Positions 6,372 through 37,074 of a stretch of 64,000 nt of DNA are shown here, piece after piece. A model generated the notes under the pieces. It searched no databases. It was not told the DNA's origin and saw nothing but the letters and a program-made list of their open reading frames with translations. Source of the DNA: an uncultured Vampirovibrionales bacterium. Its GTDB lineage: Bacteria; Cyanobacteriota; Vampirovibrionia; Vampirovibrionales; Vampirovibrionaceae. The translations under genes and the position numbers were made by a program. How positions within the stretch are numbered: position 1 is the first letter of the stretch; every line of letters begins with the position of its first letter. The stretch covers positions 69,439 through 133,438 of the forward strand of contig CAYMIG010000004.1 in the NCBI GenBank assembly GCA_964390635.1. The letters are read 5' to 3'.

Positions 6372-6535
6372 GGTTTTCGAACTAAGCCCAAAAGCCTGCG
6401 GCACAGCAGGCGGTGGGCACTTCTGTATGTTGCCATCCGTCTACTGACCTTGCCGTTGGCATTGTAACGGGACGGGACACCCGGGATCAAGGGCGGGCCT
6501 CACCCCCTGTCTTTGCCTTAGGGAGGAGGTGCCGG

Positions 6536-9495: not shown

Positions 9496-9503
9496 GTGGT
9501 TTG

Positions 9504-13868: not shown

Positions 13869-13877
13869 GCCCCTACC

Positions 13878-14928: not shown

Positions 14929-15211
14929 GGCGATATTCCTTGCTTGGGCATAAAACGGTCTGGGCCAGTTGTCGGCTTGGGCGGGCCGATCTTTAAACCG
15001 GGCGCCCATGGCATCCGGTCCCTGTAATCCATTGTAAGGCTTCTAGCACAAGGTGGGGTTGAGGGGTTTTTGTGTTGGTGATTCAATCGGGGCGGGTCAT
15101 GGGATCCGCCGGATGGATCCCTGTGGGTGCCATGTTCCGTAGCCCGTTTTGCAAGCGACCGGATTCGCTTCGGTCTGATGGGGTTTAGCCCGAAAGGCGC
15201 AACAACGCTCA

Positions 15212-15757
15212 ATGAATGTTCCCGCCGTGAACCTTGCTGCCGATCAGCTGATGGCCAGACGCCTGGCTATCGTTTCCCGGCGTTTCAGTTTTTGGGCCCC
15301 GGTGGGCAACGCCGTGTTCGGCCCCTTGCTGCTCAACCAGGAGTACAAACAAAAGGGGCGTCCCGATCATGAGCGGCGCATGCTGGTGTTTCAGGAGGCG
15401 GCCAGCCAGGGGGTGAACCTGCTGGTGCACTGGGCCTCTTTCCTGTTTGGCAGCAAGCTGGCCGAAACCCTTATCAGGCGGCGCTGGCCGGGTGTGGGGC
15501 CTGCCTCGCTGGAGATGGGGGTCACCATTGCCGCCAATGTGGGCAGTTTCCTGGGCATGAGCCTGCTGCGCCCGGTGGTGAGCGCCAAGCTGCTGAACCG
15601 GTTCATGGGGGAAACGGGTCGTCCCTCGGCCCAGGCCGAGCGTCCGGCGTCCCGATTGCTCCCCCTGCCCGGGGAGCCTCCCCTGCGCCGAACCATCCTC
15701 CCCCCGCAAGAAGCTTCCCCAGCCACCCTACCCCCGGCCTTCCCCCCTGTTCGCTAG
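15212..15757 (+). CDS. hypothetical protein
   Basis: 181-aa ORF with one or two hydrophobic segments and a Pro-rich tail. No family recognised; the GC-rich context makes it uncertain. Confidence 0.35.
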   Translation: MNVPAVNLAADQLMARRLAIVSRRFSFWAPVGNAVFGPLLLNQEYKQKGRPDHERRMLVFQEAASQGVNLLVHWASFLFGSKLAETLIRRRWPGVGPASLEMGVTIAANVGSFLGMSLLRPVVSAKLLNRFMGETGRPSAQAERPASRLLPLPGEPPLRRTILPPQEASPATLPPAFPPVR

Positions 15758-20302: not shown

Positions 20303-20318
20303 GCGTGCTAGAGTCCCT

Positions 20319-20795
20319 CTAAGCCGTTGGCCTGGCAGGAATTTTACCGGTAAAGGCCTTCAGCAGGTCGAAGGTGGTGACGATGCCACAGAGTTGCTGG
20401 TTCCTGGCGTCCACAATCACCACCCGGTGAATACGATTCTTATACATGATTTCGGCCAGGGCTTCAATGGCGGTTTCGGGGGTGGCGGTGATCACCCGGC
20501 GGGTCATGAAGTCCGAGACAAAGCCTTCGGTAATGCTTTCCAGGTGGAAGCCTTCCGACTCCAGGGCCCGGTCCAGGGCGTCCGACTCCTGGAAGCTGGG
20601 CGAAAAGGCCAGGTTCAGCCCGGTGTTGAGGATGTCCGACATGCTGATGAGCCCCACCAGGCAGCCGGTCTCATCCACCACCGGGGCGCCGCTGATGCGG
20701 TTGGCCACCAGCAACTCCTGCACTTCCTCGCAGGTCATGTCCGGGCGGGCGGTAATGACATGGCGGTTCATCATCGATTGGGCGGTCAGGGTCAT
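20319..20795 (-). CDS. CBS-pair domain protein
   Basis: Two CBS motifs (MNRHVITARPDMTCEEVQELLVANRISGAPVVDE...; FMTRRVITATPETAIEALAEIMYKNRIHRVVIVD). First gene of the CBS/HK/RR string. Confidence 0.9.
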   Translation of the reverse strand: MTLTAQSMMNRHVITARPDMTCEEVQELLVANRISGAPVVDETGCLVGLISMSDILNTGLNLAFSPSFQESDALDRALESEGFHLESITEGFVSDFMTRRVITATPETAIEALAEIMYKNRIHRVVIVDARNQQLCGIVTTFDLLKAFTGKIPARPTA

Positions 20796-20823
20796 GGCGG
20801 GTCTCCTCCATCAGCGTGCTTGT

Positions 20824-20859
20824 AAAGAAAAAGCCCGGCACGGCATGGCGCTGTGCCGG
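20824..20859 (-). terminator. intrinsic terminator-like hairpin plus U-run, about 30 nt upstream of the CBS gene start
   Basis: Minus strand reads CCGGCAC-loop-GTGCCGG (extendable to about 10 bp), followed by GCTTTTTCTTT. The GGAGGAG Shine-Dalgarno and ATG of the CBS gene follow directly. Confidence 0.5.
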
Positions 20860-21130
20860 AACAGACCAGAAATTAGGGATTTAAATTGTGGTTTGTGGTG
20901 TTAGCGTGGGTTGTATTCCGGTTGGGATGCCAGTGGCCCTGGCAGAAACGCGGGGCGCTTCCGTCGTCTTGGCGAGCTAGCAGGCAGCCGGCCACCGACA
21001 TCCGTTGACCGGGCGACTCCCGATGGGAGACGACATCCGGGTAAAGCCGTCGGTTCCGTGCGGGGGGCGATGCCCCCCTTGCGGATGACCCCATCATGGC
21101 AAAATTCACCCCCGCTTAAATTCAGCATGT
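20824..21130 (-). ncRNA. candidate structured leader/riboswitch-like element or sRNA (class not identified; 5' end not defined)
   Basis: 450-nt gap with no credible ORF. Strong hairpins GGGGGGC-GAT-GCCCCCC (21062-21078) and CTCCC-GAT-GGGAG (21017-21029). 9-nt direct repeat CGACATCCG at 20996 and 21031. Ends in the terminator above. Confidence 0.3.
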
Positions 21131-21248
21131 GGCTATTACCCTAATGGCTAACCTCGCCATTCCAACAATGGCGGATTTATGCCCGTCGGCAAACGCCTAC
21201 CATTAGGACAGGTTCCAAACGCATTCATCCCGGACAGGAGGTTCGCCC

Positions 21249-21647
21249 ATGGCCCTTTCGCGATTACCCGACCAGCCTGACATCGCCTATGTGACCCTGG
21301 GCGCCCTCAATCCCTGCCGGTTGAAAGAGGACTTGCCGTGTGCCGTCCAGATTGCCGAACACCTGATTGGCCTGCTGGAAACCTACGGGGTGGGCGAGCC
21401 GCCTTCCCTGAAGATTCCGTCGCCCATGGCCCTGGCCGGGTTTTATCGCCGCGGGGTGCTGGACGTGCTGGACGCCCTGTACGAAATGAAACTGCGCCGC
21501 TACGAATACGTCACCGGCGGGCTGGATCATGAGGTCATCTTACATGACCCCCTGAACCGCAAGGCCCATCCCCATGTCTCGTGGCCCATGTTTACCGACG
21601 GCTGGCATTCCCCCTGGCAAGCCCGGCCGCGAACCCTTTACCCATAA
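21249..21647 (+). CDS. small stand-alone winged-HTH protein (GntR-N-terminal-like)
   Basis: IAEHLIGLLETYGVGEPPSLKIPSPMALAGFYRRGVLDVLDALYEMKLRRYEYVTGGLDHEVIL follows the GntR wHTH pattern. No effector domain. Confidence 0.5.
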   Translation: MALSRLPDQPDIAYVTLGALNPCRLKEDLPCAVQIAEHLIGLLETYGVGEPPSLKIPSPMALAGFYRRGVLDVLDALYEMKLRRYEYVTGGLDHEVILHDPLNRKAHPHVSWPMFTDGWHSPWQARPRTLYP

Positions 21648-21662
21648 CGGGAGCGTTTTACC

Positions 21663-21968
21663 ATGGAAAACCCCATCAACCGGGCTACCGAAATTGCCCT
21701 GGACCAGTTGCCCCCCTTCCTGAAACCCGCCGCCGGCCCCCCGCCGGAAGTCAGTCACATTGCCGGCTGCCTGTGCCAGGTGCTGGACGGCCATGGGGAC
21801 GAGGGGGCGGTGGTGCTGCCCTCCCTGGCCCAACTGAAGGAGCACTTCCATTGTTCGCACCTGGACATCTACGATGTGCTGCGTGCCCTGCGCCACCGTG
21901 GATTCGACTACAGCTTCGGGGGCCTGGACGCCCCCCTGCGCCTGTGGCGGGTCATGCCGCCCGATTAA
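21663..21968 (+). CDS. small stand-alone winged-HTH protein, paralog of the preceding gene
   Basis: IAGCLCQVLDGHGDEGAVVLPSLAQLKEHFHCSHLDIYDVLRALRHRGFDYSFGGLDAPLRLW aligns by eye with the upstream gene product. Confidence 0.5.
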   Translation: MENPINRATEIALDQLPPFLKPAAGPPPEVSHIAGCLCQVLDGHGDEGAVVLPSLAQLKEHFHCSHLDIYDVLRALRHRGFDYSFGGLDAPLRLWRVMPPD

Positions 21969-22022
21969 TGCCAACCCAGCTGTTTTGTACGGAATTGTAA
22001 ACCAGAACGAAGGAGACCCGAC

Positions 22023-22481
22023 ATGAAAATTCTGTTACCGACCGATGGCTCGGATTGCGCCCGCCAAACCTTGCAGTGGGCGGCGGAAACCTTTGACAAG
22101 CAGGCTACCGAATATTACCTGCTGCATGTCATCCGGGTGTTCCCGGAAAACTACAGCGTGGAATTCGACATTGCCGACACCACGCGCATGCTCAACGAGC
22201 TGAAGCAGGAAATGGAAGCCCGGGGCTGCCGGGTGGTCAAGGCTGAGTATGTCCTGGGCGAGCCGCTGACCAGCATTTGCGCCTATGCCGACGACATGCA
22301 GGTGGATCAGGTGGTGATTGGCTCCCATGGCCGCACCGGGCTGAAGAAGATGCTGCTGGGCAGCACCAGCGAAGCCCTGCTGGAGCACTGCAAGCGGCCC
22401 GTGCTGATCCACCGCAACCTGCAACCGGAGCGCCTGCACGTGGAGCCCCCGCACCTGGTGCCCCAGAATACCATTTTTTAA
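22023..22481 (+). CDS. universal stress protein (UspA family)
   Basis: MKILLPTDGSDCA...VVIGSHGRTGLKKMLLGSTSEALLEHCKRPVLI (ATP-binding G-x2-G-x9-G[ST] motif). Confidence 0.9.
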   Translation: MKILLPTDGSDCARQTLQWAAETFDKQATEYYLLHVIRVFPENYSVEFDIADTTRMLNELKQEMEARGCRVVKAEYVLGEPLTSICAYADDMQVDQVVIGSHGRTGLKKMLLGSTSEALLEHCKRPVLIHRNLQPERLHVEPPHLVPQNTIF

Positions 22482-23516: not shown

Positions 23517-24047
23517 ATGACCCTGCAAGCCGAACTGCTGAAGTTAACCCTGGAGCGTGCCCGGCGTGAAAACGGGGGCCTGCGCACGCTGGGCCTGCGT
23601 TTTTACCAGCGGCTGTTTGACAAGTATCCCCAGGTGCGGCCCCTCTTTCACACCGAGCCCGAGGAACAGCACGTCAAGCTGATGGCCTCCCTGGGCGCCA
23701 TTGTGGCGGCGGTGCAGTCGCCCGATCGCCTGATGCCCTACCTGCATGCCATGGGCATCCGGCATGTGGCATACGGCACCGAAGAAGGCCATTATGCGGC
23801 AGTCGCCGAAAACCTGATGGCCGTGCTGGAAGAGCACCTGCGGGTGGAGGGGGACTGGACCGACGCCATGCGGGCGGCCTGGCAGGAAGCCTTGCAGGCG
23901 GTCTCCGCCATCATGATTGATGCGGCCCGCCGGCCCGAGGAGTACGCTCCCGAGCTGCTGGCCGCGGGCTACGGGCTGGACGGCTTCCGGGTGGATACCG
24001 ACAAGCCCTGGGAACTGTCCGTACCGGCCCCGCCCCTGGAGGTGTAG
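23517..24047 (+). CDS. single-domain bacterial globin
   Basis: RFYQRLFDKYPQVRPLF (B/C helices), HVKLMASLGAIV (E helix), LHAMGIRHVAYG (proximal His), HYAAVAENLMAVLEEHL (G helix). Confidence 0.85.
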   Translation: MTLQAELLKLTLERARRENGGLRTLGLRFYQRLFDKYPQVRPLFHTEPEEQHVKLMASLGAIVAAVQSPDRLMPYLHAMGIRHVAYGTEEGHYAAVAENLMAVLEEHLRVEGDWTDAMRAAWQEALQAVSAIMIDAARRPEEYAPELLAAGYGLDGFRVDTDKPWELSVPAPPLEV

Positions 24048-24873: not shown

Positions 24874-25064
24874 CGGCAGCAGAGTTCCGGCGGCCAGGGC
24901 GTAGGCGGGGCGGCCGGGACATACAAGAAGTTGAAGTAGCAATACAGCCCGAACAGAAGCAGGATGACGGCCACCATCATCCAGAAGGCCCCACGGCTCA
25001 TGGGGTGATCGTCGGCAGGCCGGCTCAGGGCGGCTCTCAGTCGGGGAATACGGGTGCTGGACAT
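24870..25064 (-). CDS. hypothetical small membrane protein
   Basis: 64-aa ORF with one TM segment (AFWMMVAVILLLFGLYCYFNFL). Directly downstream of the next gene on the same strand. Confidence 0.3.
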   Translation of the reverse strand: MSSTRIPRLRAALSRPADDHPMSRGAFWMMVAVILLLFGLYCYFNFLYVPAAPPTPWPPELCCR

Positions 25065-25067
25065 GGC

Positions 25068-25382
25068 TTACCTCCCTTCGGGGGTGGTGTCTTGGTAAAG
25101 CAAGGTATCCGGGCACTCCTCCTGCTTCTGGGGCGGGGCTTGCAGTCGGATGCGCGGGTTCAGGAATTCGTCAAAGGCGTCCTTGATGTTGTAAAACTCC
25201 GTGCGGCAGTCGGCGTCGGCCTCCTGCTCACTGAGGCATTCTTCCAGGCGTTTCATATACTGCTGCATGCGGGCCTTTTCCGCATCGGCATTCACCGGTT
25301 CGCAACCGGTCTGCGGGTAGCCGGCGGGGGTCAGCACGGTGAGGGCGAGCACCAGGGCCGGCAGAATAAGCGAACGTTTCAT
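25068..25382 (-). CDS. small secreted Cys-containing protein
   Basis: Internal start MKRSLILPALVLALTVLTPAG (signal peptide), then a charged helical region with four Cys. Confidence 0.5.
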   Translation of the reverse strand: MKRSLILPALVLALTVLTPAGYPQTGCEPVNADAEKARMQQYMKRLEECLSEQEADADCRTEFYNIKDAFDEFLNPRIRLQAPPQKQEECPDTLLYQDTTPEGR

Positions 25383-26013
25383 GGCGGAACCTTTCAAAGC
25401 GATGGATGTTCTCTGTAGCTTCAGCTTAACCTGTCCAGGGCCGGCCTGCCTTCCCAAAACGAATATTAGCCAAAAGGGGAAGCGGCGCCTGCTCGCCATG
25501 CGGGCATGGGTATGCGTTACGGAATTTTGCCGGTTTCGGAATTGGCGCTTGCGTCCGGGGCGCTCTTGGGCTATCCTGCCTCAACAACGGTTCGTTCCAC
25601 CGGTTTGGGGTATGACGGTGGGATATACGGACGGGGAAACTGGGTTTCTGCATGCCTCGCCATTTTCTAGGGGGTTCGCAATTCCTCCACCTATGGAAAG
25701 GCCTGCCGCTCCGGGTTTTACCGGTGCCTTGCCGGCTCCAAGCCTCTGAAGCCTGACCCAATGCCTGTTGGAAAATCGTTTGTAACAATGCACTTAACAA
25801 ATTAGCAACAAGACAATTTTAGGAGGCTTATAAAAACGTCCTGGTAGAAGTAGAAGATGTGGGTTCCGTCCTGTATCGCCCTTCCTCCGGATATCCAGAC
25901 TTACGAATGTGATGTGAGCCAAAAAGCATCTGGGGAAACCTGTAGTGTTTTTGCAGGCGGTTTAACCAAAGTTTTAGGGAAAAGTTTAAGGGAAGAATGG
26001 AGATAACATTACG

Positions 26014-28359
26014 ATGAGACTGATGGACCAGCAGGTTGGCGTAGTGAAGCCGTTTGCCAAGCCGCAGGGCAAGGAAGTGGGTTTCGGCACCAGCCCGATT
26101 TCAGCCAACCATGCCAAGTCGGTACAATTCGGCGCGTCCACCCGGCCCAAGGCGGGCGGGGTGGATGAGGAGGCCACCGATCTCGGCGCGCTCCTGAGAA
26201 GCCAGTTCAACGCGGCCCAGGCCGTCCAGACTTCCGAAGTCATTACCCTCAACGAGCTTTATCGCAAGTTGCTGCGTGATCCGGCCCCGGCCCTTTCCGC
26301 CCACCAGCGGCTGTACCGGGCCATCATGCATGAAGGCGAGGATGAGCCGGTCAACATCCTGGGGCGCAAGGTGCGCCGCTACAAGGCGTTCACCGGCGGC
26401 GGCAGTGTGACGCTGACCGCCCTGCGCGGGGTGGAAGAAGCCCATGAGCAATTCATGAACCTGTTGCGGGACGGCCTGGACGGCAACGAAAAAGGCCGCC
26501 GCGCCATTCTGCTTCTGGGTGGCCCCGGGAGCGGCAAGACCGAAACCGTGAACATCTGCAAACGCCTGCTGGCGGAATCCACCAAGACCTTCAACCCGGT
26601 CTACTCGCTGAAGTGGGTGGATCTGCCGCCCGAAATCCTGAAGCTGGGCAACGAGGAAGGCGAAGAGGATACCGATCCCAAGCTGAGCAACCCGCTGCTG
26701 CTCTTCCCCCGGGAAGTGCGCCAGGCCATCCAGACCCAGCTGAACGAGGCCTACCAGCAGGAACTGGGCTTCCCGGTCTTCACCCTGACCGAGGACGAGC
26801 TCTCCGGGCGTTCCGCCAAGATTCGCGACCTGCTGGTGAAAAAGTACCTGGAGGAGCTGAAAGAGAGCGAGCCGGATCTGAAGCCGGAAGAAGCCCTGCT
26901 GAAGGCTACCGAGATGGTCATCAACAAGCATGCCCGGGCCCAGCGCGTGGTTTTCCGGGAGGATCAAGGCATCGGCTACGTGGAAGGGAAAGACCCCAAC
27001 CACTTCGACGCCACGGTCATCAGCGGCGACGTGCACCCGGCGGGCGAAGCCCGTTATGGCACCGCCCAGGATCCCCGCGCCTTCGACTACGGTCGCAGCG
27101 ACGTGCTGAAAGGCAACGGCGGTTTGGTGCACTTTGACGAGATGCTGAAAACCAAGGATACCCACCTGCAGTCCCTCTTGCAGATTGCCCAGGAAGGCCG
27201 CGCCAAGGGGGTGGCTGGTATCCGGGAAAAAGTAAACACCGTGCTGCTGGGCACCAGCAACCTGGCTGAGTATCTCAAGCTGCGGCGCAAGGGAGAAAAC
27301 AGCCCGCTGTTTGAACGGATTTCCGTGGTCAAGTTCCGCTACCCGCGCAACTACAAAGAGGAAATCGCCATCTACAAGGATGGGTTCGAAAAGCAGGCCC
27401 GGACGCACAACATCTATATTGCCCCCCATGCCCTGGAAACTGCGGCCCTGTTTGCGGTGATGACCCGTCTGACCATTCCTTCCGGGGAAAGCCGGGGCAT
27501 CCTGCCGGTGAAGGCCGATCTCTACGCCGGAGAGTTCTCCAAGTATCCCAAGGTGCCCCAGGCCACCGTGGCCAAGTGGAAGGCCGAGGGTGAGACCAAC
27601 TACGAGGACGAATCCAAAGAGGAAGGCTTCACCGGGATCAGTACCCGTTTGATGCGGGACTTCCTGACCGCCATGAAGAACAGCCAGTTTATCGGCGATC
27701 CCACCGGCGAGCGCACCCTGGACGGCTTTGCCATGATCAAGGCCCTGCGCTACGAGCTGGAAAACAATGGCCTGTTCAAGCTGCCCAACGTGAAGCTGCG
27801 CCAGGAGTACGAGCAGGTGCTGAACCTGGCCCAGGCCCGTCTGGATGAAGCGGTTTCCGAGGATGTCAAGGCGGTGATCGAGTCCGATGACGAGCAACTG
27901 CAGGCGGCCTTCGAAAACTACACCCGCCGGGTCATCGCCTGGTCCAACCATGCCAACAACGGCATGCCGTTTGACAATACCGATGAGCGCGGCCTGAAGG
28001 AAAACCTGGAGCGCGCCGAGCGCAACATGACCGTGGTCGAGGAGCAGATGGGCCTGAGAACCAAGGAGGCCCGGGAGGCTCACCGTCACCAGTTGGCTTC
28101 CAAGCTGGCCCTGAACCAGATCCAAGGCAAGACCAACGACCTCGACAGCAACCCCAGCCTGAAGAAGGCGTTGCTGGCGGTGCTGACCCGCAGCATGCAG
28201 GTGGGCATCCCCTACGAGGCGCTCAAGACCACCAACCCGGATGCCAAGCAGAAAGAGCACCAGGAGCGGTTCTACACCAAGATGGCCCAGAAAGGCTACA
28301 ACCGGACCGCCGCCCTCAATGCGCTTGAATGCTACCAGCGCGTCTACAACCGGCAGTAA
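26014..28359 (+). CDS. prkA: PrkA/YeaG-family AAA+ protein (paralog 1) with a roughly 70-aa N-terminal extension
   Basis: GGAG sits 11 nt before the ATG. Walker A LLLGGPGSGKTE. GNGGLVHFDEMLKTKDTHLQSLLQIAQEG parallels YeaG ANGGLMEFVEMFK...LLTATQEG. Confidence 0.9.
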   Translation: MRLMDQQVGVVKPFAKPQGKEVGFGTSPISANHAKSVQFGASTRPKAGGVDEEATDLGALLRSQFNAAQAVQTSEVITLNELYRKLLRDPAPALSAHQRLYRAIMHEGEDEPVNILGRKVRRYKAFTGGGSVTLTALRGVEEAHEQFMNLLRDGLDGNEKGRRAILLLGGPGSGKTETVNICKRLLAESTKTFNPVYSLKWVDLPPEILKLGNEEGEEDTDPKLSNPLLLFPREVRQAIQTQLNEAYQQELGFPVFTLTEDELSGRSAKIRDLLVKKYLEELKESEPDLKPEEALLKATEMVINKHARAQRVVFREDQGIGYVEGKDPNHFDATVISGDVHPAGEARYGTAQDPRAFDYGRSDVLKGNGGLVHFDEMLKTKDTHLQSLLQIAQEGRAKGVAGIREKVNTVLLGTSNLAEYLKLRRKGENSPLFERISVVKFRYPRNYKEEIAIYKDGFEKQARTHNIYIAPHALETAALFAVMTRLTIPSGESRGILPVKADLYAGEFSKYPKVPQATVAKWKAEGETNYEDESKEEGFTGISTRLMRDFLTAMKNSQFIGDPTGERTLDGFAMIKALRYELENNGLFKLPNVKLRQEYEQVLNLAQARLDEAVSEDVKAVIESDDEQLQAAFENYTRRVIAWSNHANNGMPFDNTDERGLKENLERAERNMTVVEEQMGLRTKEAREAHRHQLASKLALNQIQGKTNDLDSNPSLKKALLAVLTRSMQVGIPYEALKTTNPDAKQKEHQERFYTKMAQKGYNRTAALNALECYQRVYNRQ

Positions 28360-28384
28360 GCGACTTGTATAAGGAATCCTCCCT

Positions 28385-30394
28385 GTGATGAATGTCCTTC
28401 ATCCGGCAGCCCGTCAGTTAACTGCCGTCACGCCCGTCCCCCGGTTCCGGGGCAACCCTGCCCAGCCGCTCCAGCCCGGAGCGGTCTCCCAGGCAGCCGC
28501 CGCCCCCGAACGGGTTCTGGCAACCCTCGGCGCCCACCAGGCCTATGCCGCCCCGCAAATCCAGTTTGCAAGCCGCATGCCCCGGTTCGGCAACCAGCAG
28601 GACGCGCAGTTTGACTACGGCGACGATGAGATGCGGGACTTCTACCTGAACAACGATCCGCGTCATTCCCCGCGCTGGCTGGCGGCCAACGCGGATGCGG
28701 ATCGCCTGCTGGCCGCCATGCAGGCCAAGGGCATCACCCCGGAGGATACCGTGTTCATGATTGCCAGCCCGGCCAAGCTGTTGCAGGTGGCCGCCCGTGG
28801 CCTGCCCAACATGCCCCCGGACTGGATCCATGGCATGAGCCTGTATGACCTGATGCAGAACGAGACCCATGGCCTGGGCCATATCTACGAACTGGTGCTC
28901 TCCACCAAGCCGTCGGTGGCCTACCTGCTGAACACCAACACCCCGCTTGAAACCCGGTTGGTGATTGCCCACGTATACGGCCATACCAGCTTTTCCCGCA
29001 TGAACAAGCTGTTCCGGGATACCCGCCCGGATGAAATCCTGCACATCGTGGGTGAGCAGCGCAACGTGACCCGGGATCTGCTGGGGGACATGACCATTCC
29101 CCGCGACCCCGACAGCCAGCGCAACCCGGTGAAGGAGTTCATGAACAAGGTGCACTCCATCGACATGCTGATTGACCTGGGGGCAGAACGCCATCCCATC
29201 CAGGACTTCGGCATTACCGAATACGTGCCGGCCTTGCACCAGGAAAAAGCCGGGGATCGCAAGGACGCGCCCCCGCCGCGCACCCTGGATCCCAAGGATC
29301 GTTACCTCTACTCCGACGAGGAGTGGACCGAGATGGAAAAACAATTGCGCCGGGAAAACACCCCCCGCCGCAAGAAGTTCCCCACCGGCATCGATCGCGA
29401 CATCCTGGGCTTCCTGGCCAAGCACTCCCCGGTGCTGGCCCCCTGGCAGCGGCAGATTCTGCAAATGCAGCGGGAACGCAGCTACTTCTTCTCGCCCATT
29501 ATGCGCACCAAGATTATGAACGAGGGCTGGGCCTCCTTCTGGCACACCAAGCTGCTGCAGGAAGATCCGGAAACCAACCTGGACGACGCCTCGGAACTGG
29601 CGGCGGTTAATGCCGGGGTGATTGCCCCCTCGCGGCAAAGCCTCAACCCCTACTGGCTGGGCTTCAACATCTGGCAAGACCTCTACATCAAGGCGGGTTT
29701 GGGACTGCCCCTGGACGAGGACACCCCGCCGCAATTCATCCACGAAACCATGACCAGCATCCGTACCAAGCCGGGCTTCGACGAGGCCCGGGCCATCCAG
29801 ACCCTGGCCAAGGTGGTGGAGAACGAGGAAGACTTCACCTTTATCGAGAAGTACCTCACCCCGGATCTGTGCGAGAAGCTCAAGCTCTACACCATCGAAA
29901 CCCAGGAAAACCCCTATGCCCACTATTATGGCGGGCCTCGGGAATACCAGTACATCAAGTCCAAGCAGGCCGAGGAAGTCCGCGGCGCCATCCTGGAAGG
30001 GTTGCGTTACGGCGGGCGTCCCCAGCTGGAAGTGGTGGACGGCAACTTCGAGGACAACGGGGAGTTGCTCATCAACCACAGCTACTCCTCCGACGCCCTG
30101 AACGTGGCCCACACCAAGAAGACCTTGCAGATCCTGGCCTCGATGTGGGGACGTCCGGTGCATATCGATACCTATATCCCGGAAGAGGACGAAGAAGACG
30201 ATTACGACCCCTACCGGGGCCGCTTTGGCATCCCGCCCACGCAGCCTCCGGAGCCAAAGCCCAAGAAGGAGCCGGAACTGGTGGCGGTGCGCTATACCGC
30301 CGATCCCAAGACCGGCGAGGTACGGACCTTCTTGCGGGAAGATCGCAAGGCCACCCGTCGCATTACCGTCAATGAAGACGGCACCATCAGTTAG
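28385..30394 (+). CDS. spoVR: SpoVR/YcgB-family protein with an N-terminal extension
   Basis: IYELVLSTKPSVAYLLNTNTPLETRLVIAHVYGHTSF, MNEGWASFWHTKLL and NPYWLGFNIWQD are family hallmarks. 25-nt gap after prkA. Confidence 0.9.
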   Translation: MMNVLHPAARQLTAVTPVPRFRGNPAQPLQPGAVSQAAAAPERVLATLGAHQAYAAPQIQFASRMPRFGNQQDAQFDYGDDEMRDFYLNNDPRHSPRWLAANADADRLLAAMQAKGITPEDTVFMIASPAKLLQVAARGLPNMPPDWIHGMSLYDLMQNETHGLGHIYELVLSTKPSVAYLLNTNTPLETRLVIAHVYGHTSFSRMNKLFRDTRPDEILHIVGEQRNVTRDLLGDMTIPRDPDSQRNPVKEFMNKVHSIDMLIDLGAERHPIQDFGITEYVPALHQEKAGDRKDAPPPRTLDPKDRYLYSDEEWTEMEKQLRRENTPRRKKFPTGIDRDILGFLAKHSPVLAPWQRQILQMQRERSYFFSPIMRTKIMNEGWASFWHTKLLQEDPETNLDDASELAAVNAGVIAPSRQSLNPYWLGFNIWQDLYIKAGLGLPLDEDTPPQFIHETMTSIRTKPGFDEARAIQTLAKVVENEEDFTFIEKYLTPDLCEKLKLYTIETQENPYAHYYGGPREYQYIKSKQAEEVRGAILEGLRYGGRPQLEVVDGNFEDNGELLINHSYSSDALNVAHTKKTLQILASMWGRPVHIDTYIPEEDEEDDYDPYRGRFGIPPTQPPEPKPKKEPELVAVRYTADPKTGEVRTFLREDRKATRRITVNEDGTIS

Positions 30395-30416
30395 TAGGTT
30401 GGAGCCAGGGAAGAAG

Positions 30417-31916
30417 ATGACAGAAATCAAGCACAATCCAGCGCAAGCCCTGTTGGGACGGCTCCCGGTGGCCGGTATCCGCCAGAGCCAGCAACCCCTG
30501 TTCGCCGGGGTGCGCTTTAATGCCGGCCCGACCGCCGATACCTTGCAGTTGTCCCGTCCGGCCCGCCCGCCCCAGTTTGGCGGCCTGCCCTGGATGACCC
30601 GCAATCCCATGTTTTCGCCCTCGCACCTGCAGGCCACCGAGGCTGACTTTGGCGACCTGCGCCGGCATGATCCCGATCTCGACGAGTGGATGGACATGCT
30701 GGACGGCAAGACCACCGAGGATTACCTGCTGGATCAGATTGTCAACGACAACATCCAGGTGGATTCCGACGGCAGCATTGTCATTAACAAGCCCCGCATC
30801 GATATCCCCATCATCCACCACGGCAACAAGTCCGGTGGCGGCGGTGGTGGCGTCGGCGCCGGGGAAGGGGAGGAAGGCGATCCGGTCAATGGCCAGCCGG
30901 GTGAAGAGCCCGGGGAAGGCAGCGAGGCCGGTAAAGACAAAGGGAACCCACCTTTGAAGCCCTGGCAGCAAAGATTCTCGCCCTCCGAAATTGCCCGCCT
31001 GGTGGGCAGCCAGTTTGGCCTGCCCTTTATGCGCCCCTCCGACGGGGAGTCCAACCGGGTGCGGGTGACCAAGGACGCCACCAAGGAAGTGCCGCCCGGC
31101 GACCTGCACCGCAAGAAAACCTTCCGTAACGCCGTGCGCCGGGTGGTGGGCGGCGCCATCGCCCAGGGCGAGCAGCCCGACTTCAGCGAGGTCTTCCCGA
31201 TCCGTCCCGACCGGGTGTACAAGGCCATCGAGCATGAGCCCCAGCCCAACCTGAAGGTGGCGGTCATCTACGTGGCCGACGTGTCCGGCTCCGTGGACGA
31301 GAACCTGCGAACCTTCACCCGCAACGCCAACCGCTTTGTGTCCTACCCGCTGAAGTACAAGTACGGCCAGCTGGCCGCCGAGCTGGCGGGCGAGGACTAC
31401 TCCGACGCCGAATTCTTTGGCAAAGACGGTACCGAGGAAGGTGGCCTGAAAGAGCGCTTCATCGTCTACACCACCGAGGCCAACGAAACCACCGAGGAGG
31501 ACTTCTACAAAACCACCCAGAGCGGCGGCACGCAGTGTTCCTCCGGCTTCAAGAAGGCCCAGGAGATTATCGAGGAAGAATACCCGCCCTCCGATGGCTG
31601 GAACGTGTATGTGTACCATTTCTCCGATGGCGACAACTGGGGCGACGACAACGCCCAGTCCGTGAAGATCATGAAAGAGATGATCAGCAGCGGCGTGCGC
31701 TACATCGGCAGCGTGGATCTGGGGAAACCCAACAACCGGCCCAGCAACTTCCGCAGCGGCATCGATGGCGCCTTCAAGGGCGATCCGCATGTGGGCACCA
31801 TCGGCGTGCCGCGCAAGGGCCAATACAGCCTGGATGACTATAAGGGCGTAATCTCTACGTTCCTGCCCCCGCAAAAAGAGGAACCCGAATGGTATGATAC
31901 CGACGTCGCTGCCTAA
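30417..31916 (+). CDS. yeaH: YeaH/YhbH-family (DUF444, vWA-like) protein with an N-terminal extension
   Basis: Start chosen at the ATG with GGAG 12 nt upstream. HHGNKSGGGGGGVGAGEGEEG, VIYVADVSGSVDE (MIDAS-like), VYVYHFSDGDNWGDDN. Confidence 0.88.
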   Translation: MTEIKHNPAQALLGRLPVAGIRQSQQPLFAGVRFNAGPTADTLQLSRPARPPQFGGLPWMTRNPMFSPSHLQATEADFGDLRRHDPDLDEWMDMLDGKTTEDYLLDQIVNDNIQVDSDGSIVINKPRIDIPIIHHGNKSGGGGGGVGAGEGEEGDPVNGQPGEEPGEGSEAGKDKGNPPLKPWQQRFSPSEIARLVGSQFGLPFMRPSDGESNRVRVTKDATKEVPPGDLHRKKTFRNAVRRVVGGAIAQGEQPDFSEVFPIRPDRVYKAIEHEPQPNLKVAVIYVADVSGSVDENLRTFTRNANRFVSYPLKYKYGQLAAELAGEDYSDAEFFGKDGTEEGGLKERFIVYTTEANETTEEDFYKTTQSGGTQCSSGFKKAQEIIEEEYPPSDGWNVYVYHFSDGDNWGDDNAQSVKIMKEMISSGVRYIGSVDLGKPNNRPSNFRSGIDGAFKGDPHVGTIGVPRKGQYSLDDYKGVISTFLPPQKEEPEWYDTDVAA

Positions 31917-34446
31917 ATTCCAAAGCCTCGCTCCCGCCGCCAAGCATTTGCCAATGGCCCTGCCGGCGCCTTCCGCCCAGCAGCTTCCAGTGTTCGGTGC
32001 CTCGGACTCCGCCCAGGCACCCTCCAGCAAGCTGCTGCAGGCCTATGCCGGGGTGCGCTTTGCCGGCACCGAGAGCGCCCTGCCGCCGGATCGCATGACC
32101 TTCGACGAGTTCATGGCCATGGTCAAGGAGGACCCCAAGAAATACATTCCCACCGCCCGCCAGTACTTTGTCAGCGGCCTGCAGTCCTGGGGCACCCACA
32201 AGGAAGAGGTGCTGGGCGAAGAGGTGAACGTGTACGACTTCCCCACCCGGCCCTGGACGCCGCCCAGCGTGCAGGACAAGGATGAATTCTACGGCCAGGA
32301 GCTGGTCATCAACCAGATCGTGGAAACCCTGAACAAGCTCTCCAAGAGCCGCACCCCGTATCTCATCCAGCTGGTGGGCCCCAACGGGGTGGGCAAGAGC
32401 CAGCTGCTCAGCGTGATGCAGGAAGCCATGGAAGTGTTCTCCAGGCAGCCCGGTGGCGAGCGCTACACGTTCAGCGTGATTGTGGCCGACCGCAAGAAAG
32501 GCACCCCGGTGGCCTTCCCCACCATGGCTTCGGCTGGGGCCAAGAAGAAATCCTCCCTGCCCAAGGAATCCGAAATCAGCTTCCGCCTGCCTTCGCCGCT
32601 GGCCGTCAACCCGCTGTTCCTGCTGACCGAGCACGAGCGCAGCGCCCTCATCCAGGAGCTCAAGGCTAAGGGCAAGCTGGACAAGGACGAAAACTTCGAC
32701 TTCTTCATCAAGGGCGGCGCCCTGGACAAGCGTTCCCAGAAAGCCATCGATGCCTTGCGCCGGGCTTATGACGGGGACATGGACAAGGTCTTCCGGGAGC
32801 ACATCCAGGTGGAGCGCTACGACTTCCCCCGGGTGATTATTCCGGCTGGCGAAAACCCGCATGCCCAGGTGCAGCACCTGGGTGGTGAAGTCACCTGGCG
32901 TAGCGCCCCGCAATCCATTGTCAACTCGGGCGCCTTGTTCGAGTACATGGGGTACCTGCCCCGGGCCAACGGCGGCATGATCAACATCGACGACATGGGC
33001 CGGGATCGCCGGGCCGATTATGCCTACCTGCTGGAAACCGCCCAGACCGGTAAGCTGATGCTGCATTCGCCGGTGGACGGCAGTATCGAGGAGCCGGTGG
33101 ATATCATCTTCTTCTCTACCGCCAACCCCGATGGCCTGAACATGCTGGCCCAGCAAGGTAACTTCCGGGCCCTGAAGGAGCGCATCATCACCATTGCCAT
33201 GCCGCATGAGCGGCGCTTCCAGAACGAGGCCAAGGTACACGCCTCCCTGTTCCGGCAGGCCGAGCAAAATGGCCGCAAGATTGCCCCGCATGTGCAGGAC
33301 ATTTACGCCCTGTGGGCCACCATGACCCGCCTGCTGCCCGCGGATCCGGCCTCCCCGGACTACCGCAACCTGCAGGACTCCGACAAGTTCAAGCGGGCCC
33401 TGGTCAAGCTGGATCCCCTGAAAAAGGCCCTGCTGTACCAGGGGGTGGAAGACCTGAATGCCGCGGAAACCAACCCCGACGCCGCCGGTTACCTCACCCC
33501 CTCCGAACAGTCCCTGTTGCGCCGCAACCTGCGGGTGATTGCCAGCGAGCACCAGCAGAGCGTGGGTGAAACCAACTATACCCATTACGAAGGCGGGCTG
33601 GGGGTTTCCGCCCGTGACGGCGACAAAATCCTGGTGCCCCAGATTATTGATGCTCACAAAGGCCAGCCCCTGACCGTGCTGGACGTGTTCGAGACCCTGG
33701 CCAAGTACATCAAGTCCGAGCCCCTGTGGATGTCCGAGCGCCACAAGTTCCTGGGCGACTACTTCAAGGATGCCAAGGGCCAGGTGGATCAGACGCTCAT
33801 GAAGCGCGCGATGCCGTCCGAGGTGGAACTGCTGAAGCTGGCCGAAGACTACGCCCGCCGCCAGTTCAAGCAGGAAGTGCGCGAGGCGGTGGAAGTGTAC
33901 CAGACCGAGGACGCCCATATCCGCACCATCCAGAAATACCTGGAGCACGTGCGGGCGGCGACCGCCACCGAGGCGGAAGAAAAAGAGGTGAGCCCGGAAT
34001 TCCGCGACGATCCCAACAAGAAAGAGCCCAACCAGAAGTTCATGCGCGACATCGAGGACGTGTTCGGCATTTCCCACACCCCCGAGGACCGTACCCGCAT
34101 CCGGGCACGCCTGACCGGCTGGAACCGCGCCGAGAACCCGGCCCAGAACATCAAGCGGCTGTTTGAAAACGAGCTGAACAAGATGCGCAAGTACGACGAA
34201 ATCACATACAACGAGCGCATCCTGCAATTCCTGCGCGACACGGCCATGCTGCAAACCAACCCAGGCATCCTGGAGCGGGAAGCCGCCGAAGTGACCGAGC
34301 GCAAAGAGCAGATCGATCGCATGCACACTGCGGTGGCCCGCCTGGGGGCCATCGGCTACCCCGCCGAATCGCTGCCCAAGCTGCTGGGTTGGGCCTTTGG
34401 CAAGGGTTACATTTCCGATGAAAGCCTGGAGGTATACGGTTCATGA
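31894..34446 (+). CDS. PrkA/YeaG-family AAA+ protein (divergent paralog 2) with an N-terminal extension
   Basis: Walker A LVGPNGVGKSQL. ANGGMINIDDMGRDRRADYAYLLETAQTGK. Its start overlaps the yeaH-like stop by 23 nt (an alternative ATG lies about 60 nt downstream). Confidence 0.88.
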   Translation: MIPTSLPKFQSLAPAAKHLPMALPAPSAQQLPVFGASDSAQAPSSKLLQAYAGVRFAGTESALPPDRMTFDEFMAMVKEDPKKYIPTARQYFVSGLQSWGTHKEEVLGEEVNVYDFPTRPWTPPSVQDKDEFYGQELVINQIVETLNKLSKSRTPYLIQLVGPNGVGKSQLLSVMQEAMEVFSRQPGGERYTFSVIVADRKKGTPVAFPTMASAGAKKKSSLPKESEISFRLPSPLAVNPLFLLTEHERSALIQELKAKGKLDKDENFDFFIKGGALDKRSQKAIDALRRAYDGDMDKVFREHIQVERYDFPRVIIPAGENPHAQVQHLGGEVTWRSAPQSIVNSGALFEYMGYLPRANGGMINIDDMGRDRRADYAYLLETAQTGKLMLHSPVDGSIEEPVDIIFFSTANPDGLNMLAQQGNFRALKERIITIAMPHERRFQNEAKVHASLFRQAEQNGRKIAPHVQDIYALWATMTRLLPADPASPDYRNLQDSDKFKRALVKLDPLKKALLYQGVEDLNAAETNPDAAGYLTPSEQSLLRRNLRVIASEHQQSVGETNYTHYEGGLGVSARDGDKILVPQIIDAHKGQPLTVLDVFETLAKYIKSEPLWMSERHKFLGDYFKDAKGQVDQTLMKRAMPSEVELLKLAEDYARRQFKQEVREAVEVYQTEDAHIRTIQKYLEHVRAATATEAEEKEVSPEFRDDPNKKEPNQKFMRDIEDVFGISHTPEDRTRIRARLTGWNRAENPAQNIKRLFENELNKMRKYDEITYNERILQFLRDTAMLQTNPGILEREAAEVTERKEQIDRMHTAVARLGAIGYPAESLPKLLGWAFGKGYISDESLEVYGS

Positions 34447-35504
34447 CATCCATTACCCGCTTCGGGCAGCTTCCCTCGCTTCGTCAACCTGCCGTAAAGT
34501 TCGCCCAGGCTTTGCCTGTGGCCGCTGCCCCTGCCGAGGGCACCCCGGCAGCGACCCCGGCGCCGGTGGGATCCGCCGAACTGACCGCGGCGCTGAAGGC
34601 CCGCAACAATATCGTCCATCTGCCTACCTTTGCCGGTCAGGCGGTGCGCTTTGGTGCCGAACGCCTGCATATCAGCCAGCGGGCCGGTCACCCGGTCTTC
34701 ATCGCCCCCGGCTACGAGGACCAGTACATGGCTGCCCTGGAGCAGGAGATTGCCGGCAAGCGCCAGGCGCCCCAGATGGCCGGGGTAGTGGAGGAGATCG
34801 ACGGCCAGAAAATGATGGTGGATCTCGATACCCACTTCTTCAACCAGGGCATCGTGTCGGTGGAAGGCCCGGTGACCGATGGCATGGCCGCGATGCTCAC
34901 CCGCCAGATCCGTTACCTGGTCAGCAAACGCCAGGCCGAGTCCAGCAACGAGCCCATCCTGATGACCATCAACAGCCCGGGGGGATCCATGTTCGCCATG
35001 AACGCCATTACGGACGCCATGGAAAACGCCCGCCGCACCGAGGTTAACGGTGAGCCGCTCAAAATCATCGCCACCATCACCGGCATGGCGGCCAGCGCGG
35101 GTTCCATCATCGCCGCCACCGCATCAGAAGTGTACATGACCCCCAACGCCATGTATATGCTGCATGCCCCCATTTCCGGTACCCAGGGCGAGTACCACGG
35201 CATGGTGCAGTCCATGAAGCTGACCCAGCGCCTGTGGCAAAAGGCCCTGGACATCTACCGCAAGAAGATGGGCTACAAGCAGTCCGATCTGGCCAAGTGG
35301 ACCCAGATCGGGGAGCGCTGGCTGGATCCCTACCAGGCCATGAAAGTGGGCCTGTGTGAGGGCATTATGGATTCCTACGACCATATTATCCCGCGGGAAG
35401 AGGCCCTGGGCCTTTCCAAGCCCTTCGAAAAGGGCAAGACCGACCTGTTCGAAGTGGATCCTGCCCACAAGGACGATCTGGTGGCCGAGGACCGGGACGT
35501 TTAG
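34443..35504 (+). CDS. Clp/S49-fold serine protease-like protein with N- and C-terminal extensions
   Basis: ATGA overlap with the preceding stop. ILMTINSPGGSMFAMNAI, TGMAASAGSIIAA (nucleophile Ser), AMYMLHAPISG (His). By-eye alignment to ClpP places Glu (GERW) where the Asp normally sits. Confidence 0.8.
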   Translation: MTSITRFGQLPSLRQPAVKFAQALPVAAAPAEGTPAATPAPVGSAELTAALKARNNIVHLPTFAGQAVRFGAERLHISQRAGHPVFIAPGYEDQYMAALEQEIAGKRQAPQMAGVVEEIDGQKMMVDLDTHFFNQGIVSVEGPVTDGMAAMLTRQIRYLVSKRQAESSNEPILMTINSPGGSMFAMNAITDAMENARRTEVNGEPLKIIATITGMAASAGSIIAATASEVYMTPNAMYMLHAPISGTQGEYHGMVQSMKLTQRLWQKALDIYRKKMGYKQSDLAKWTQIGERWLDPYQAMKVGLCEGIMDSYDHIIPREEALGLSKPFEKGKTDLFEVDPAHKDDLVAEDRDV

Positions 35505-35583: not shown

Positions 35584-36018
35584 CTACTTGCGCATCATCT
35601 TGCGCACTTCGCCAATGTGCATCTCTTCCTCAGCCACCATGCGCCGGGCGTATTCCTCGATCATCACCGATTTGTCCTTGACCAGATCCAGTAATTGCTG
35701 GTACAGGTGCAGCTGCTGGGTTTCGTGCTCCAGGGACTCTTCCAGGATGCTGAAGATGTCGTGCTTGTGGGTTTCCAGCAGTTGCCCAATGCCCAGCGAG
35801 GGGTGCTCGCCAAGATGCGTGATGAGCTCCCCGGCTTCCTGGGCATGGGTCAGGGACTCGGTGCCCTGTCCCCGCAGCCAGGAGGTGATGGGGATGCGGT
35901 TGGGGCCGAAAACCATAAACGAGTAATGGGTGTAGCGTACCACCCCGGCCAGTTCCATTTCCAGAATCCGGTTCAGTACGTCCAAGACTTTCGCGGTGTC
36001 CAATTTGGCGTCGCTCAT
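35584..36018 (-). CDS. ferritin-like / bacterioferritin-family protein
   Basis: VLDVLNRILEMELAGVVRYTHYSF, ESLTHAQEAGELITHLGE, EESLEHETQQLHLYQQLL, MVAEEEMHIGEVRK are four-helix-bundle di-iron ligand patterns (E, ExxH). Confidence 0.85.
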   Translation of the reverse strand: MSDAKLDTAKVLDVLNRILEMELAGVVRYTHYSFMVFGPNRIPITSWLRGQGTESLTHAQEAGELITHLGEHPSLGIGQLLETHKHDIFSILEESLEHETQQLHLYQQLLDLVKDKSVMIEEYARRMVAEEEMHIGEVRKMMRK

Positions 36019-36201
36019 CCGATATGCCCCTCCGTGGCTCGATTGGTTATGGATACGCGCCTATTATGGCACAAGCCGGGGGGTTCATCCAAAACCCCAG
36101 CCAGAACGCCATGGGGAGCCGCATGGCAATTCCTGTTGATTGCTTGTTTTTATTTTAATAGTTCTGAGTATTGCGTCAGCAAGTTAGGGTATGAGGTGGG
36201 A

Positions 36202-37074
36202 ATGGTTTCACCAAGCGGTTTTGGCATGTCCCCGTTCCAGATGATGCCCATGATGGGTGCATCGCCCATGGGCTTTTCCGGCAGTCCCATGGCAAGCCCG
36301 GGGATGGGAATGGCGTCTCCCTTTGGCTTTGGCCAGAATATGGCCCAGCCGGGCGGTGGCATGGGGCAGGGGGATCCTGCCCAGATGATGTTTCAGATGA
36401 TGGGCATGATGATGATGATGATGATGTCCTTCATGATGATGCTGATGTCTATGTTGCAGCAGTCGGGGCAATCCCCGGGTAGCCCGGGCGGCCTGGCGGA
36501 CATGAACGTCCCGGGTGAGCGCCTTGGCAACGGCGGTGGCGGAGGCGGTGAAGGCGGCGGAGGCGGTAACTTTGCGGCCCTTAGCGATCGCGCGGTGCCC
36601 ACCACCCTGGAAAGCATGAATGTCGGCAACAACGCCGACCTGCGTAACAGCCTGGCGGCCATCGCCGAGGATCCTGACGGGGCCCGCTTGCTGGAGGCGG
36701 TACAGGCCAAGGGCATCCGTATTCGGGTGGGCGATCCGGGCGGCCCCGAGGTGCAAGGCCTCTTTACCGGTAACGAGATTATCGTGCGGGATCCCCGCAA
36801 CGTCAAAACCCTGGTGCACGAGATGGTGCATGCCGCCACCAATGGGGATGGCAACTCCAAAAGTGAGGAAGGTCGCGCCGACGTGATTGGTACCCGGGTG
36901 GCCCGCCGCATTGCCCAGAAGGAAGGCCTCGATCCGGGCAGCATTGGCGCCCGGGAGGGATCGGACCAGCACATCTTCGAAACCAAGAAGCAGGTGGACG
37001 GCTACCGTGGCCTTTCTGAGGAGAATGGCTCCCGGCAGACCCTGGCCCACCTGGGGGTGCAGGTGAACGTTTAG
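36202..37074 (+). CDS. Met/Gly-rich (harpin-like) N-terminal module fused to an HExxH zincin-like domain
   Basis: GAGGTGGG immediately precedes the ATG. N-terminus SPFQMMPMMGASPMGFSGSPM...MMFQMMGMMMMMMMSFMMMLMSMLQQ, then GNGGGGGGEGGGGGN. C-terminal VKTLVHEMVHAATNGDG. No signal peptide. Confidence 0.7.
   Translation: MVSPSGFGMSPFQMMPMMGASPMGFSGSPMASPGMGMASPFGFGQNMAQPGGGMGQGDPAQMMFQMMGMMMMMMMSFMMMLMSMLQQSGQSPGSPGGLADMNVPGERLGNGGGGGGEGGGGGNFAALSDRAVPTTLESMNVGNNADLRNSLAAIAEDPDGARLLEAVQAKGIRIRVGDPGGPEVQGLFTGNEIIVRDPRNVKTLVHEMVHAATNGDGNSKSEEGRADVIGTRVARRIAQKEGLDPGSIGAREGSDQHIFETKKQVDGYRGLSEENGSRQTLAHLGVQVNV
36406..36426 (+). repeat. (ATG)7 trinucleotide microsatellite encoding Met7
   Basis: catgatgatgatgatgatgatgtcc read directly; more ATG-rich sequence follows (ttcatgatgatgctgatg). 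Confidence 0.95.

Follow-up and report, generated by a model that had tools for sequence, protein, structure and literature searches.

Few conserved stress genes are as widespread in bacteria, and as poorly understood in biochemical terms, as those for PrkA (YeaG), YeaH and SpoVR (YcgB). Here we describe an expanded version of the PrkA(YeaG)-YhbH(YeaH)-SpoVR(YcgB) triad in a stretch of 64,000 nucleotides (the window) of contig CAYMIG010000004.1, from an uncultured Vampirovibrionales bacterium. RecA likewise assigns the window to a Vampirovibrionales-like organism, a non-photosynthetic relative of cyanobacteria. Five genes on its + strand, g1 to g5, encode two PrkA-type proteins of the AAA+ class (ATPases associated with diverse cellular activities), a SpoVR protein, a DUF444 protein with a von Willebrand factor A (vWA) domain and a ClpP-like protein. 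Published accounts of PrkA disagree: it has been taken for a kinase, for a Lon-like protease and for an ATPase and nothing more (PMC13001217). In a 2026 study, purified PrkA from Bacillus anthracis proved to be an AAA+ ATPase that lacked both a protease active site and protease activity (PMC13001217), in conflict with an earlier claim by Zhang et al. 2022, as cited in PMC13001217, that B. subtilis PrkA is a Lon-like protease. The B. anthracis finding and the B. subtilis claim would be compatible if the peptidase were a partner protein with a gene of its own.

The five genes are most likely a form of the PrkA/SpoVR/YeaH stress module that is specific to Melainabacteria and presumably co-transcribed. 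We propose, with a probability of roughly 45%, that they encode a PrkA-based AAA+ machine with its own ClpP-fold peptidase, which would act as a split ATP-dependent protease in starvation or dormancy. Its components would be two anciently diverged PrkA-type ATPases, one canonical (g1) and one from a separate subfamily (g4), together with SpoVR, the vWA protein DUF444 and a dedicated ClpP-fold serine peptidase (g5), whose gene, in many lineages, adjoins the 3' end of g4 and appears to be coupled to it in translation. A PrkA-type ring, formed chiefly by g4 and possibly with g1, would serve as the ATP-driven unfoldase or remodeller, and g5 would form a ClpP-like chamber and supply the peptidase activity that PrkA proteins lack, with DUF444 and SpoVR as adaptor or regulator subunits. 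We infer the physical partnership of g4 and g5, the direction in which they would act and their physiology from the genes themselves. The proteolytic or remodelling machine that a preliminary description of the locus had supposed is plausible.

Gene content and conservation of the module

The five genes and their identifying residues are the following.

26014-28359, + strand: g1, PrkA of the canonical type, 781 aa; Walker A GGPGSGKT at 26518-26541, Walker B LVHFDE at 27124-27141
28385-30394, + strand: g2, SpoVR family (Pfam), 669 aa
30417-31916, + strand: g3, vWA protein of the DUF444/YeaH type, 499 aa from its ATG; DVSGS, resembling a metal ion-dependent adhesion site (MIDAS), within 31263-31292 (VIYVADVSGS)
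31894-34446, + strand: g4, second, divergent PrkA-like AAA+ protein (PrkA2), 850 aa; Walker A GPNGVGKS at 32377-32400, Walker B MINIDD at 32977-32994
34443-35504, + strand: g5, predicted divergent ClpP-fold serine peptidase, 353 aa; Ser218 in GMAASAG at 35082-35102, His241 in MLHAP at 35157-35171
35310-35324, + strand: GERWL of g5, with Glu291 at the Asp171 position in an alignment to human and E. coli ClpP

From g1 to g5, the genes are separated by gaps of 25 and 22 nt and then joined by overlaps of 23 nt and 4 nt (ATGA); the open frame of g3 begins upstream of its ATG, at TTG 30225. ORF coordinates and motif positions bore out the strand, the spacings and every motif quoted in the preliminary description, and its tight, operon-like packing and five family assignments were likewise upheld, the latter by Pfam matches that all lie above the gathering scores. 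The matches were to AAA_PrkA (PF08298; 1e-35, 123.6 bits) and PrkA_C (PF06798; 2e-25, 90.6 bits) for g1 (cut-off 25), to SpoVR (PF04293; 2e-72, 244.4 bits, cut-off 27) and SpoVR_C (3e-6) for g2, to DUF444 (PF04285; 2e-41, 143 bits, cut-off 27) for g3, in which the vWA MIDAS motif DxSxS is present as DVSGS, to AAA_PrkA (2e-16, 60.2 bits) and PrkA_C (2e-11, 44.4 bits) for g4 (cut-off 25), and to CLP_protease (9e-28, 97.8 bits, cut-off 20.2) for g5. The module proteins are divergent, since all of them fall far under the NCBIfam equivalog cut-offs even though they exceed the Pfam gathering scores. Against NF011999, g1 reached 100.4 bits (cut-off 576), which marks it as divergent and not an equivalog of E. 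coli YeaG; g2 reached 142 of the 679 bits set for the SpoVR equivalog, and the match of g3 to the PRK05325-type model (4e-53) also stayed under its equivalog cut-off. PADLOC models of anti-phage defence systems gave no match for g1, g2, g3 or g5, and only generic AAA matches of ~19 bits for g4.

We scanned 185,579 species-representative genomes with g4 profiles and annotated the loci with local hidden Markov models (HMMs) of the five families. All relatives of the window's module are metagenome-assembled. The loci fall into three classes. The first, confined to Melainabacteria/Vampirovibrionales, has the core g1-g2-g3-g4 with or without g5. The second (50 loci, L100-L149) consists of solitary g4-like proteins of ~740 aa, nearer to g4 than to the canonical PrkAs and unaccompanied by SpoVR, DUF444 or a ClpP-like gene, hosted by Planctomycetota, Myxococcota, Oligoflexia, Bdellovibrionota and Bradymonadia; many of these host lineages are predatory. 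The third is the canonical triad (24 loci), in which the order is PrkA-DUF444-SpoVR in most cases, a few being cut by a contig end, and the PrkA proteins score best with the g1 HMM. No ClpP-like gene was found within 10 kb at any of the 24 canonical triad loci or the 50 solitary g4-like loci.

Within the first class, g4 is followed at once by g5, in the same orientation, in ~10 lineages (the window, L001, L002, L089, L085-87, L093, L098, L178, L180 and L095), whose GC contents span 33-62%, whose g4 identities go down to ~27-30% and whose flanking genes differ. The 4-nt overlap between g4 and g5 is found in the window, L001, L089, L090 and L093, and an overlap of 14 nt in L085. Two g5 orthologs (44-47% identity) are located on contigs with the same five genes in the same order and with other flanking genes, and L089 and L090 show this gene order as far as the contig ends. 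In L085-87, where g4 is 34% identical, the five genes are accompanied by a second ClpP-like gene. Chance adjacency, the case for which the preliminary description had called for a neighbourhood survey, is excluded because gene order and junctions recur in diverged genomes with different flanks. The g5 family itself is tiny: a word-indexed protein search returned six orthologs and then dropped to generic ClpP at ~1e-12. A single-protein scan of reference genomes with g5 gave no match, and neither did a g4-profile scan of metagenome contigs.

Some loci showed individual peculiarities. In a Vampirovibrionaceae metagenome-assembled genome (MAG), L093, a gene for an M17 leucyl aminopeptidase (13792-15351) follows g5 after ~100 nt on the same strand, an arrangement unseen at the other loci. 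In the Melainabacteria MAG L181 (3753-12415), g1, g2, g3 and g4 are each split into several ORFs, which could reflect pseudogenisation or assembly frameshifts. The module is also carried by L091 (DATNPJ010000026.1), a GTDB representative labelled 'Coleofasciculaceae cyanobacterium'; this label may be due to a Melainabacteria contig that was binned or labelled wrongly.

The ClpP-fold protein and the PrkA-type ATPases

Profile scores and structure prediction place g5 among the ClpP-fold proteins and set it apart from both the housekeeping ClpP and SppA. Its AlphaFold model has a well-defined core, with a predicted local distance difference test score (pLDDT) of 80-93, and disordered residues 1-91. 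The top 50 PDB matches of this model in Foldseek were all ClpP, handle included, with target-normalised template modelling (TM) scores of 0.85-0.90 at 22-27% identity. Ser218 aligns with the nucleophile of ClpP and His241 with its base, and this Ser and His are invariant in the active members of the family. Compared to ClpP, the protein is extended by ~100 aa at the N-terminus and ~40 aa at the C-terminus, giving 353 aa versus ~200 aa for the housekeeping enzyme. The preliminary description had allowed that g5 might prove to be a housekeeping ClpP or SppA paralog; it scored 49.5 bits against the housekeeping ClpP model TIGR00493 (cut-off 308.6) and 16.6 bits against the SppA/peptidase S49 model PF01343 (cut-off 24.9), reaching neither cut-off.

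A second PrkA-type ATPase is indeed encoded by the module, as had been described. It is not the duplicate it had been taken for: g1 and g4 share 29% identity over 255 residues (E 6e-13), and because the identity is this low, g4 is not a recent duplicate of g1. Sequence comparison places g1 with the canonical triad PrkAs and g4 in a PrkA-like subfamily of its own, whose members stand alone in other phyla. The solved PrkA structure 9xip is matched by g1 at 2e-35 (residues 82-733) and by the g4 family profile at 2e-36. Walker A and B motifs are kept in both ATPase families, with GP[NK]GxGKS and a [DE]D Walker B in 8/8 aligned g4 orthologs. A g4-profile HMMER search of 1.84 billion representative proteins found 972 relatives at E<=1e-3 and 213 at E<=1e-30, including ~60 clusters of the long g4 type (850-1000 aa) and many forms of ~750 aa. 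As a diverse 50-sequence alignment of g4-type proteins was unsuited to pattern extraction, sub-clade alignments were used instead. The analysis thus sets apart a PrkA2 subfamily (~970 representative clusters, E<=1e-3) that occurs alone in several phyla. Four of the long g4-type proteins (P0047, P0048, P0055 and P0069) have similar C-terminal G-[SQ]-G-I tails (QGSGI, VGQGI, VGSGI and FGSGI), which may serve in docking.

Gene content, order, coupling and conservation are established for this module, as are intact ATPase motifs in both PrkA proteins and a ClpP fold with Ser and His in g5. That g5 would act as the peptidase of a PrkA-type unfoldase is suggested by its position next to g4 in ~10 diverged lineages and at none of the canonical or solitary loci, together with the Walker motifs kept in both ATPases. 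The ClpP fold of g5 with its handle, its invariant Ser and His and an Asp that most clades retain, its altered docking pocket and the pairing of an active with a dead ClpP-like protein in L085, both described below, point in the same direction.

Several observations weigh against this proposal. In ~6 core lineages (L094, L099, L177, L088, L184 and L183) there is no adjacent g5 although the sequence runs past g4, and in L088 an ArsC-like gene follows g4; this suggests that the core works without g5 or uses a partner in trans. Being present in ~10 lineages and absent from ~6, g5 is a recurrent but facultative fifth gene, so that of the five-gene architecture first described the recurrence stands and the ClpP-like gene is optional. 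The third residue of the catalytic triad is not constant either: the Asp171 position is occupied by Glu in the window and L002, by Ala in L001 and by Asp in L085, L093, L178 and L180. The Glu that had been noted at this position was therefore confirmed for the window, in the alignment to human and E. coli ClpP, and is limited to the window sub-clade (E/A/E), other members having Ser-His-Asp. The AlphaFold2 model of g4, built from 7 sequences, is too poor to show a peptidase-facing surface (pLDDT 56, AAA half <50), and Foldseek found no match for it at E<=0.001 in a library that may predate 9xip. No IGF-type loop was seen in g1 or g4 by inspection. Finally, the profile scores of g5 are slightly higher for phage head-maturation proteases (phrog_94, 112 bits, 1e-31; NCBIfam Clp_rel_HeadMat, NF045542, 91.4 bits, cut-off 120) than for cellular ClpP models (98 bits for Pfam CLP_protease, 79 for the NCBIfam ClpP subfamily and 48 for the PHROG ClpP type). 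Phage head-maturation proteases need no unfoldase.

It is also conceivable, if improbable, that g5 is an extra ClpP isoform for the housekeeping unfoldases, placed in the operon only for co-regulation in starvation. A ClpC is encoded in the window at 1444-3918, ClpX presumably elsewhere, and the presence of several ClpP/ClpR paralogs is typical of cyanobacteria and related bacteria. The facultative presence of g5 would fit such a role, as would the tandem ClpP-like genes that follow g4 in L085 (12801-13913 and 13943-14842) and likewise in L086 and L087. The second of the L085 proteins lacks the catalytic Ser and His (GMVGEEA, ELNQP), and the resulting active/dead pair resembles cyanobacterial ClpP/ClpR. 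On the other hand, g5 is only 22-27% identical to ClpPs and far under the TIGR00493 cut-off (49.5 versus 308.6 bits), its family was found only after g4, and its position and overlap with g4 are conserved. Furthermore, the residues that we take to form the pocket for IGF/LGF loops in E. coli ClpP (Y60, Y62, F82, I90, M92, F112, L114 and L189, a comparison that serves as a lead) correspond in the alignment mostly to unlike residues across the g5 family. Replacement of this pocket, which also binds acyldepsipeptides (ADEP), argues against a partnership of g5 with housekeeping ClpX or ClpC.

The g5 proteins also differ among clades in their terminal and inserted regions. In the window clade (the window, L001 and L002), the C-terminal extension (aa ~310-353) contains a conserved [DR]-L-[FWH]-x-[VI]-x-P-A-[PH] element; this is missing from the L085/L093 clade, which has long insertions after the handle helix instead.

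N-terminal extensions and a shared motif

In Vampirovibrionales-type genomes, each module protein begins with a low-complexity, disordered extension of 30-100 residues, which ends 10-20 residues before the folded domain. Inside these extensions we found a short motif that the preliminary description does not mention, with the core [RQHK]-F-[GSA] and the generalised form φ-x-F-[G/A/S], hereafter called the tag. In the window, it occurs in all five module proteins and in GlgX, which is encoded outside the module.

26122-26136, + strand: tag VQFGA of g1 (aa 37-41); variant EVGFG at 26074-26088
28559-28573 and 28580-28594, + strand: tags IQFAS and PRFGN of g2
30510-30524 and 30570-30584, + strand: tags VRFNA and PQFGG of g3
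32053-32067, + strand: tag VRFAG of g4
34455-34469, 34494-34508 and 34644-34658, + strand: tags TRFGQ, VKFAQ and VRFGA of g5
7054-9495, + strand: GlgX, glycogen debranching enzyme (Pfam CBM_48 and Alpha-amylase), with an N-terminal extension of ~110 aa
7102-7116, 7213-7227, 7276-7290 and 7369-7383, + strand: the four tag copies of GlgX, PRFAR, PLFGQ, PRFGQ and LRFAP

The motif is present in 15/15 proteins of the three genomes from which it was defined, and its core in 21/23 proteins of five loci examined later, compared to a mean of 4.1 and a maximum of 13 in shuffles. Over the first 110 residues it is ~10x as dense as over the remainder of these proteins. A stringent form of the tag was found in 10/23 test proteins versus 0/118 PrkA-family or triad proteins from other phyla, and the loose core in 36/38 module proteins versus 47/118 of these controls (Fisher 4e-10).

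The genomes are high in GC and contain many spurious long ORFs, and the relatives are all metagenome-assembled, so that one might suspect the adjacency of the genes to be chance or an annotation artefact, or the extensions to be untranslated leaders with a conserved nucleotide motif. Both ideas are effectively refuted. Gene order and junctions recur across GC contents of 33-62%, and the stringent tag is absent from the control proteins. That the extensions are translated follows from their elevated GC at third codon positions (GC3 0.70-0.76 versus ~0.55 for intergenic GC), from synonymous variation in the tag codons, from conserved residues upstream of alternative starts and from starts that are fixed by overlapping junctions.

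The tag is not restricted to the module. In GlgX, the form φ-[RQK]-F-[GA] occurs in 8/8 extended orthologs (including P0184-P0190 and L174 10001-12484), one copy being located ~35-40 residues before the catalytic body in 7/7 of the closest orthologs; ordinary GlgX proteins have neither extension nor tag. In a related genome, L174, FtsH (20182-22467) carries QPRFSGNQ on its cytoplasmic N-terminal extension, before the first transmembrane helix, one ankyrin protein starts with MSVRFGSN and a second has PAFGGH (12538-13827, 8222-9709), and an AAA protein (5327-6808) has the variant VHFEGR. Several small neighbouring proteins start with the tag as well. Its occurrence on FtsH, ankyrin and AAA proteins suggests a lineage-wide cytoplasmic tag.

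The extensions bear on a further role for g5, namely that of a processing (maturation) protease, which would trim the N-terminal extensions of the module proteins, its own included, and possibly those of other tagged proteins, with no unfoldase involved. We consider this unlikely, though credible. The best profile matches of g5 are to head-maturation proteases, its own extension of ~100 aa takes the place of the short propeptide that ClpP cleaves from itself, a disordered segment of 30-100 aa ends 10-20 aa before the folded domain in all module proteins, and the unfoldase-docking pocket is not conserved. The NCBIfam scores are nevertheless under the curated cut-offs, the margin over the ClpP models is small, the closest folds are cellular ClpPs, and no capsid-like or scaffold gene is present at the locus. 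Extensions and tags also persist without an adjacent g5 in L177 and L088, and L180 has a g5 with almost no tags.

A tag that exists for the sake of g5, as its cleavage or docking site, was at first favoured by three low-GC modules lacking g5, in which 0/12 proteins are tagged, and then weakened by the loci of the preceding paragraph: in L180, g5 is present and tags are almost absent, and L177 and L088 are tagged with no adjacent g5. The tag follows the Vampirovibrionales lineage, not g5. A role as an export signal is disfavoured by its presence on the cytoplasmic N-terminus of FtsH and by the lack of a hydrophobic region and of twin arginines; recognition or docking in the cytoplasm is the likelier role. 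The tag resembles the docking loop of E. coli ClpX (...GSGIGFGATVK...), a likeness that had hinted at docking onto g5; its distribution does not bear out this idea in a simple form. The tripeptide [LIVM]GF is absent from the ClpC of the window, from which no lineage-specific docking motif can thus be derived. A hydrophobic-Pro motif in the low-GC modules was unconvincing, as it was chosen post hoc, occurs in 4/12 proteins and is reached by ~3% of shuffles.

More speculatively, the tag might be a Vampirovibrionales-wide recognition code, either a docking peptide or a degron, read by the machine of PrkA2 and the ClpP-like protein, whose own subunits would be tagged along with GlgX, FtsH and ankyrin clients. 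We regard this as a long shot. If true, a two-component PrkA-ClpP protease would here underlie a new way of selecting substrates or of assembly. In any case, an N-terminal tag that seems to run through the cytoplasmic proteins of this lineage of predatory, non-photosynthetic cyanobacterial relatives is a separate and possibly more novel lead.

Flanking sequences and comparison with known systems

The module lies between a leader region and a convergent gene, both of which are as previously described.

25500-26013, + strand: AT-richer non-coding leader/promoter region (GC), with GGAG ~12 nt before the ATG of g1
35584-36018, - strand: ferritin-like gene, convergent to the module (Pfam 4.5e-17)

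The GC content of 25001-26000 is 0.556 versus ~0.62 elsewhere in the window. Scans with promoter and terminator consensus sequences gave no signal beyond chance, as judged from shuffles, and no internal terminator on the + strand; an Rfam scan matched no family in the leader region, a tRNA being its sole match. Stress-type neighbours in the window are a universal stress protein (Usp), a globin and the ferritin-like protein (22023-22481, 23517-24047 and 35584-36018), and a Usp gene is likewise located near the module in L085. Just past the ferritin-like gene, 36145-37074 (+) encodes a Met/Gly-rich protein with SGFGMS, MGFSGS and PFGFGQN repeats, a poly-Met stretch and an HExxH motif (VHEMVHA). 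The adjoining 37123-38220 (+) encodes a protein that has a GH19 chitinase-like domain at its C-terminus and a similar stretch rich in Met, Thr and Val. These two proteins may be predation effectors.

In the literature searched, no paper links PrkA/SpoVR/DUF444 to a ClpP-like gene or describes a second PrkA, in agreement with the preliminary description, which had not recognised the architecture as a known one. The V. chlorellavorus genome paper makes no mention of the module genes. The 'PrkA' of Listeria was set aside as an unrelated PASTA kinase. The operon offers a testable idea, namely a split protease in which PrkA proteins provide the unfoldase, and a defined set of proteins with which to reconstitute it.

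The closest described system is the PrkA(YeaG)-YhbH(YeaH)-SpoVR(YcgB) triad. The module shares with it the three families, tightly packed on one strand, a g1 that groups with the triad PrkAs, and stress-type neighbours. Unlike the triad, it adds a second ATPase of the PrkA2 subfamily and a ClpP-fold peptidase, and its proteins carry N-terminal tagged extensions in Vampirovibrionales-type genomes. The gene order also differs, SpoVR preceding DUF444 in the window (PrkA-SpoVR-DUF444) and following it in the canonical triad (PrkA-DUF444-SpoVR), which corrects the comparison with the triad made in the preliminary description.

Pairings of AAA+ ATPases with vWA proteins of the MoxR/RavA type (RavA-ViaA, CbbQ-CbbO) resemble the module in that an AAA+ ATPase is encoded together with a vWA/MIDAS protein (DVSGS in g3). 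Such a pairing follows a general logic of remodeller plus adaptor. In contrast to these pairs, the AAA+ clade of the module is PrkA, no MoxR family was matched in Pfam, and SpoVR and a peptidase are present. With the phage prohead proteases, g5 shares its best profile scores, and the module proteins would be potential substrates, having N-terminal segments just upstream of their folded domains. It differs from them in that no phage morphogenesis genes are found nearby, the gene being chromosomal and conserved in a cellular stress operon.

As in ClpXP, ClpAP and ClpCP, an AAA+ gene adjoins the gene of a putative ClpP-fold Ser-His(-Asp) peptidase. The ATPase of the module is, however, of the PrkA type and not Clp/Hsp100, no internal IGF loop was found in it, the docking pocket is replaced and g5 is extended at both ends. 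Finally, the Lon-like model of B. subtilis PrkA, as it is cited in PMC13001217, also ties PrkA to ATP-dependent proteolysis. In contrast to that model, the peptidase of the module would be a separate ClpP-fold subunit rather than an intrinsic domain of PrkA.

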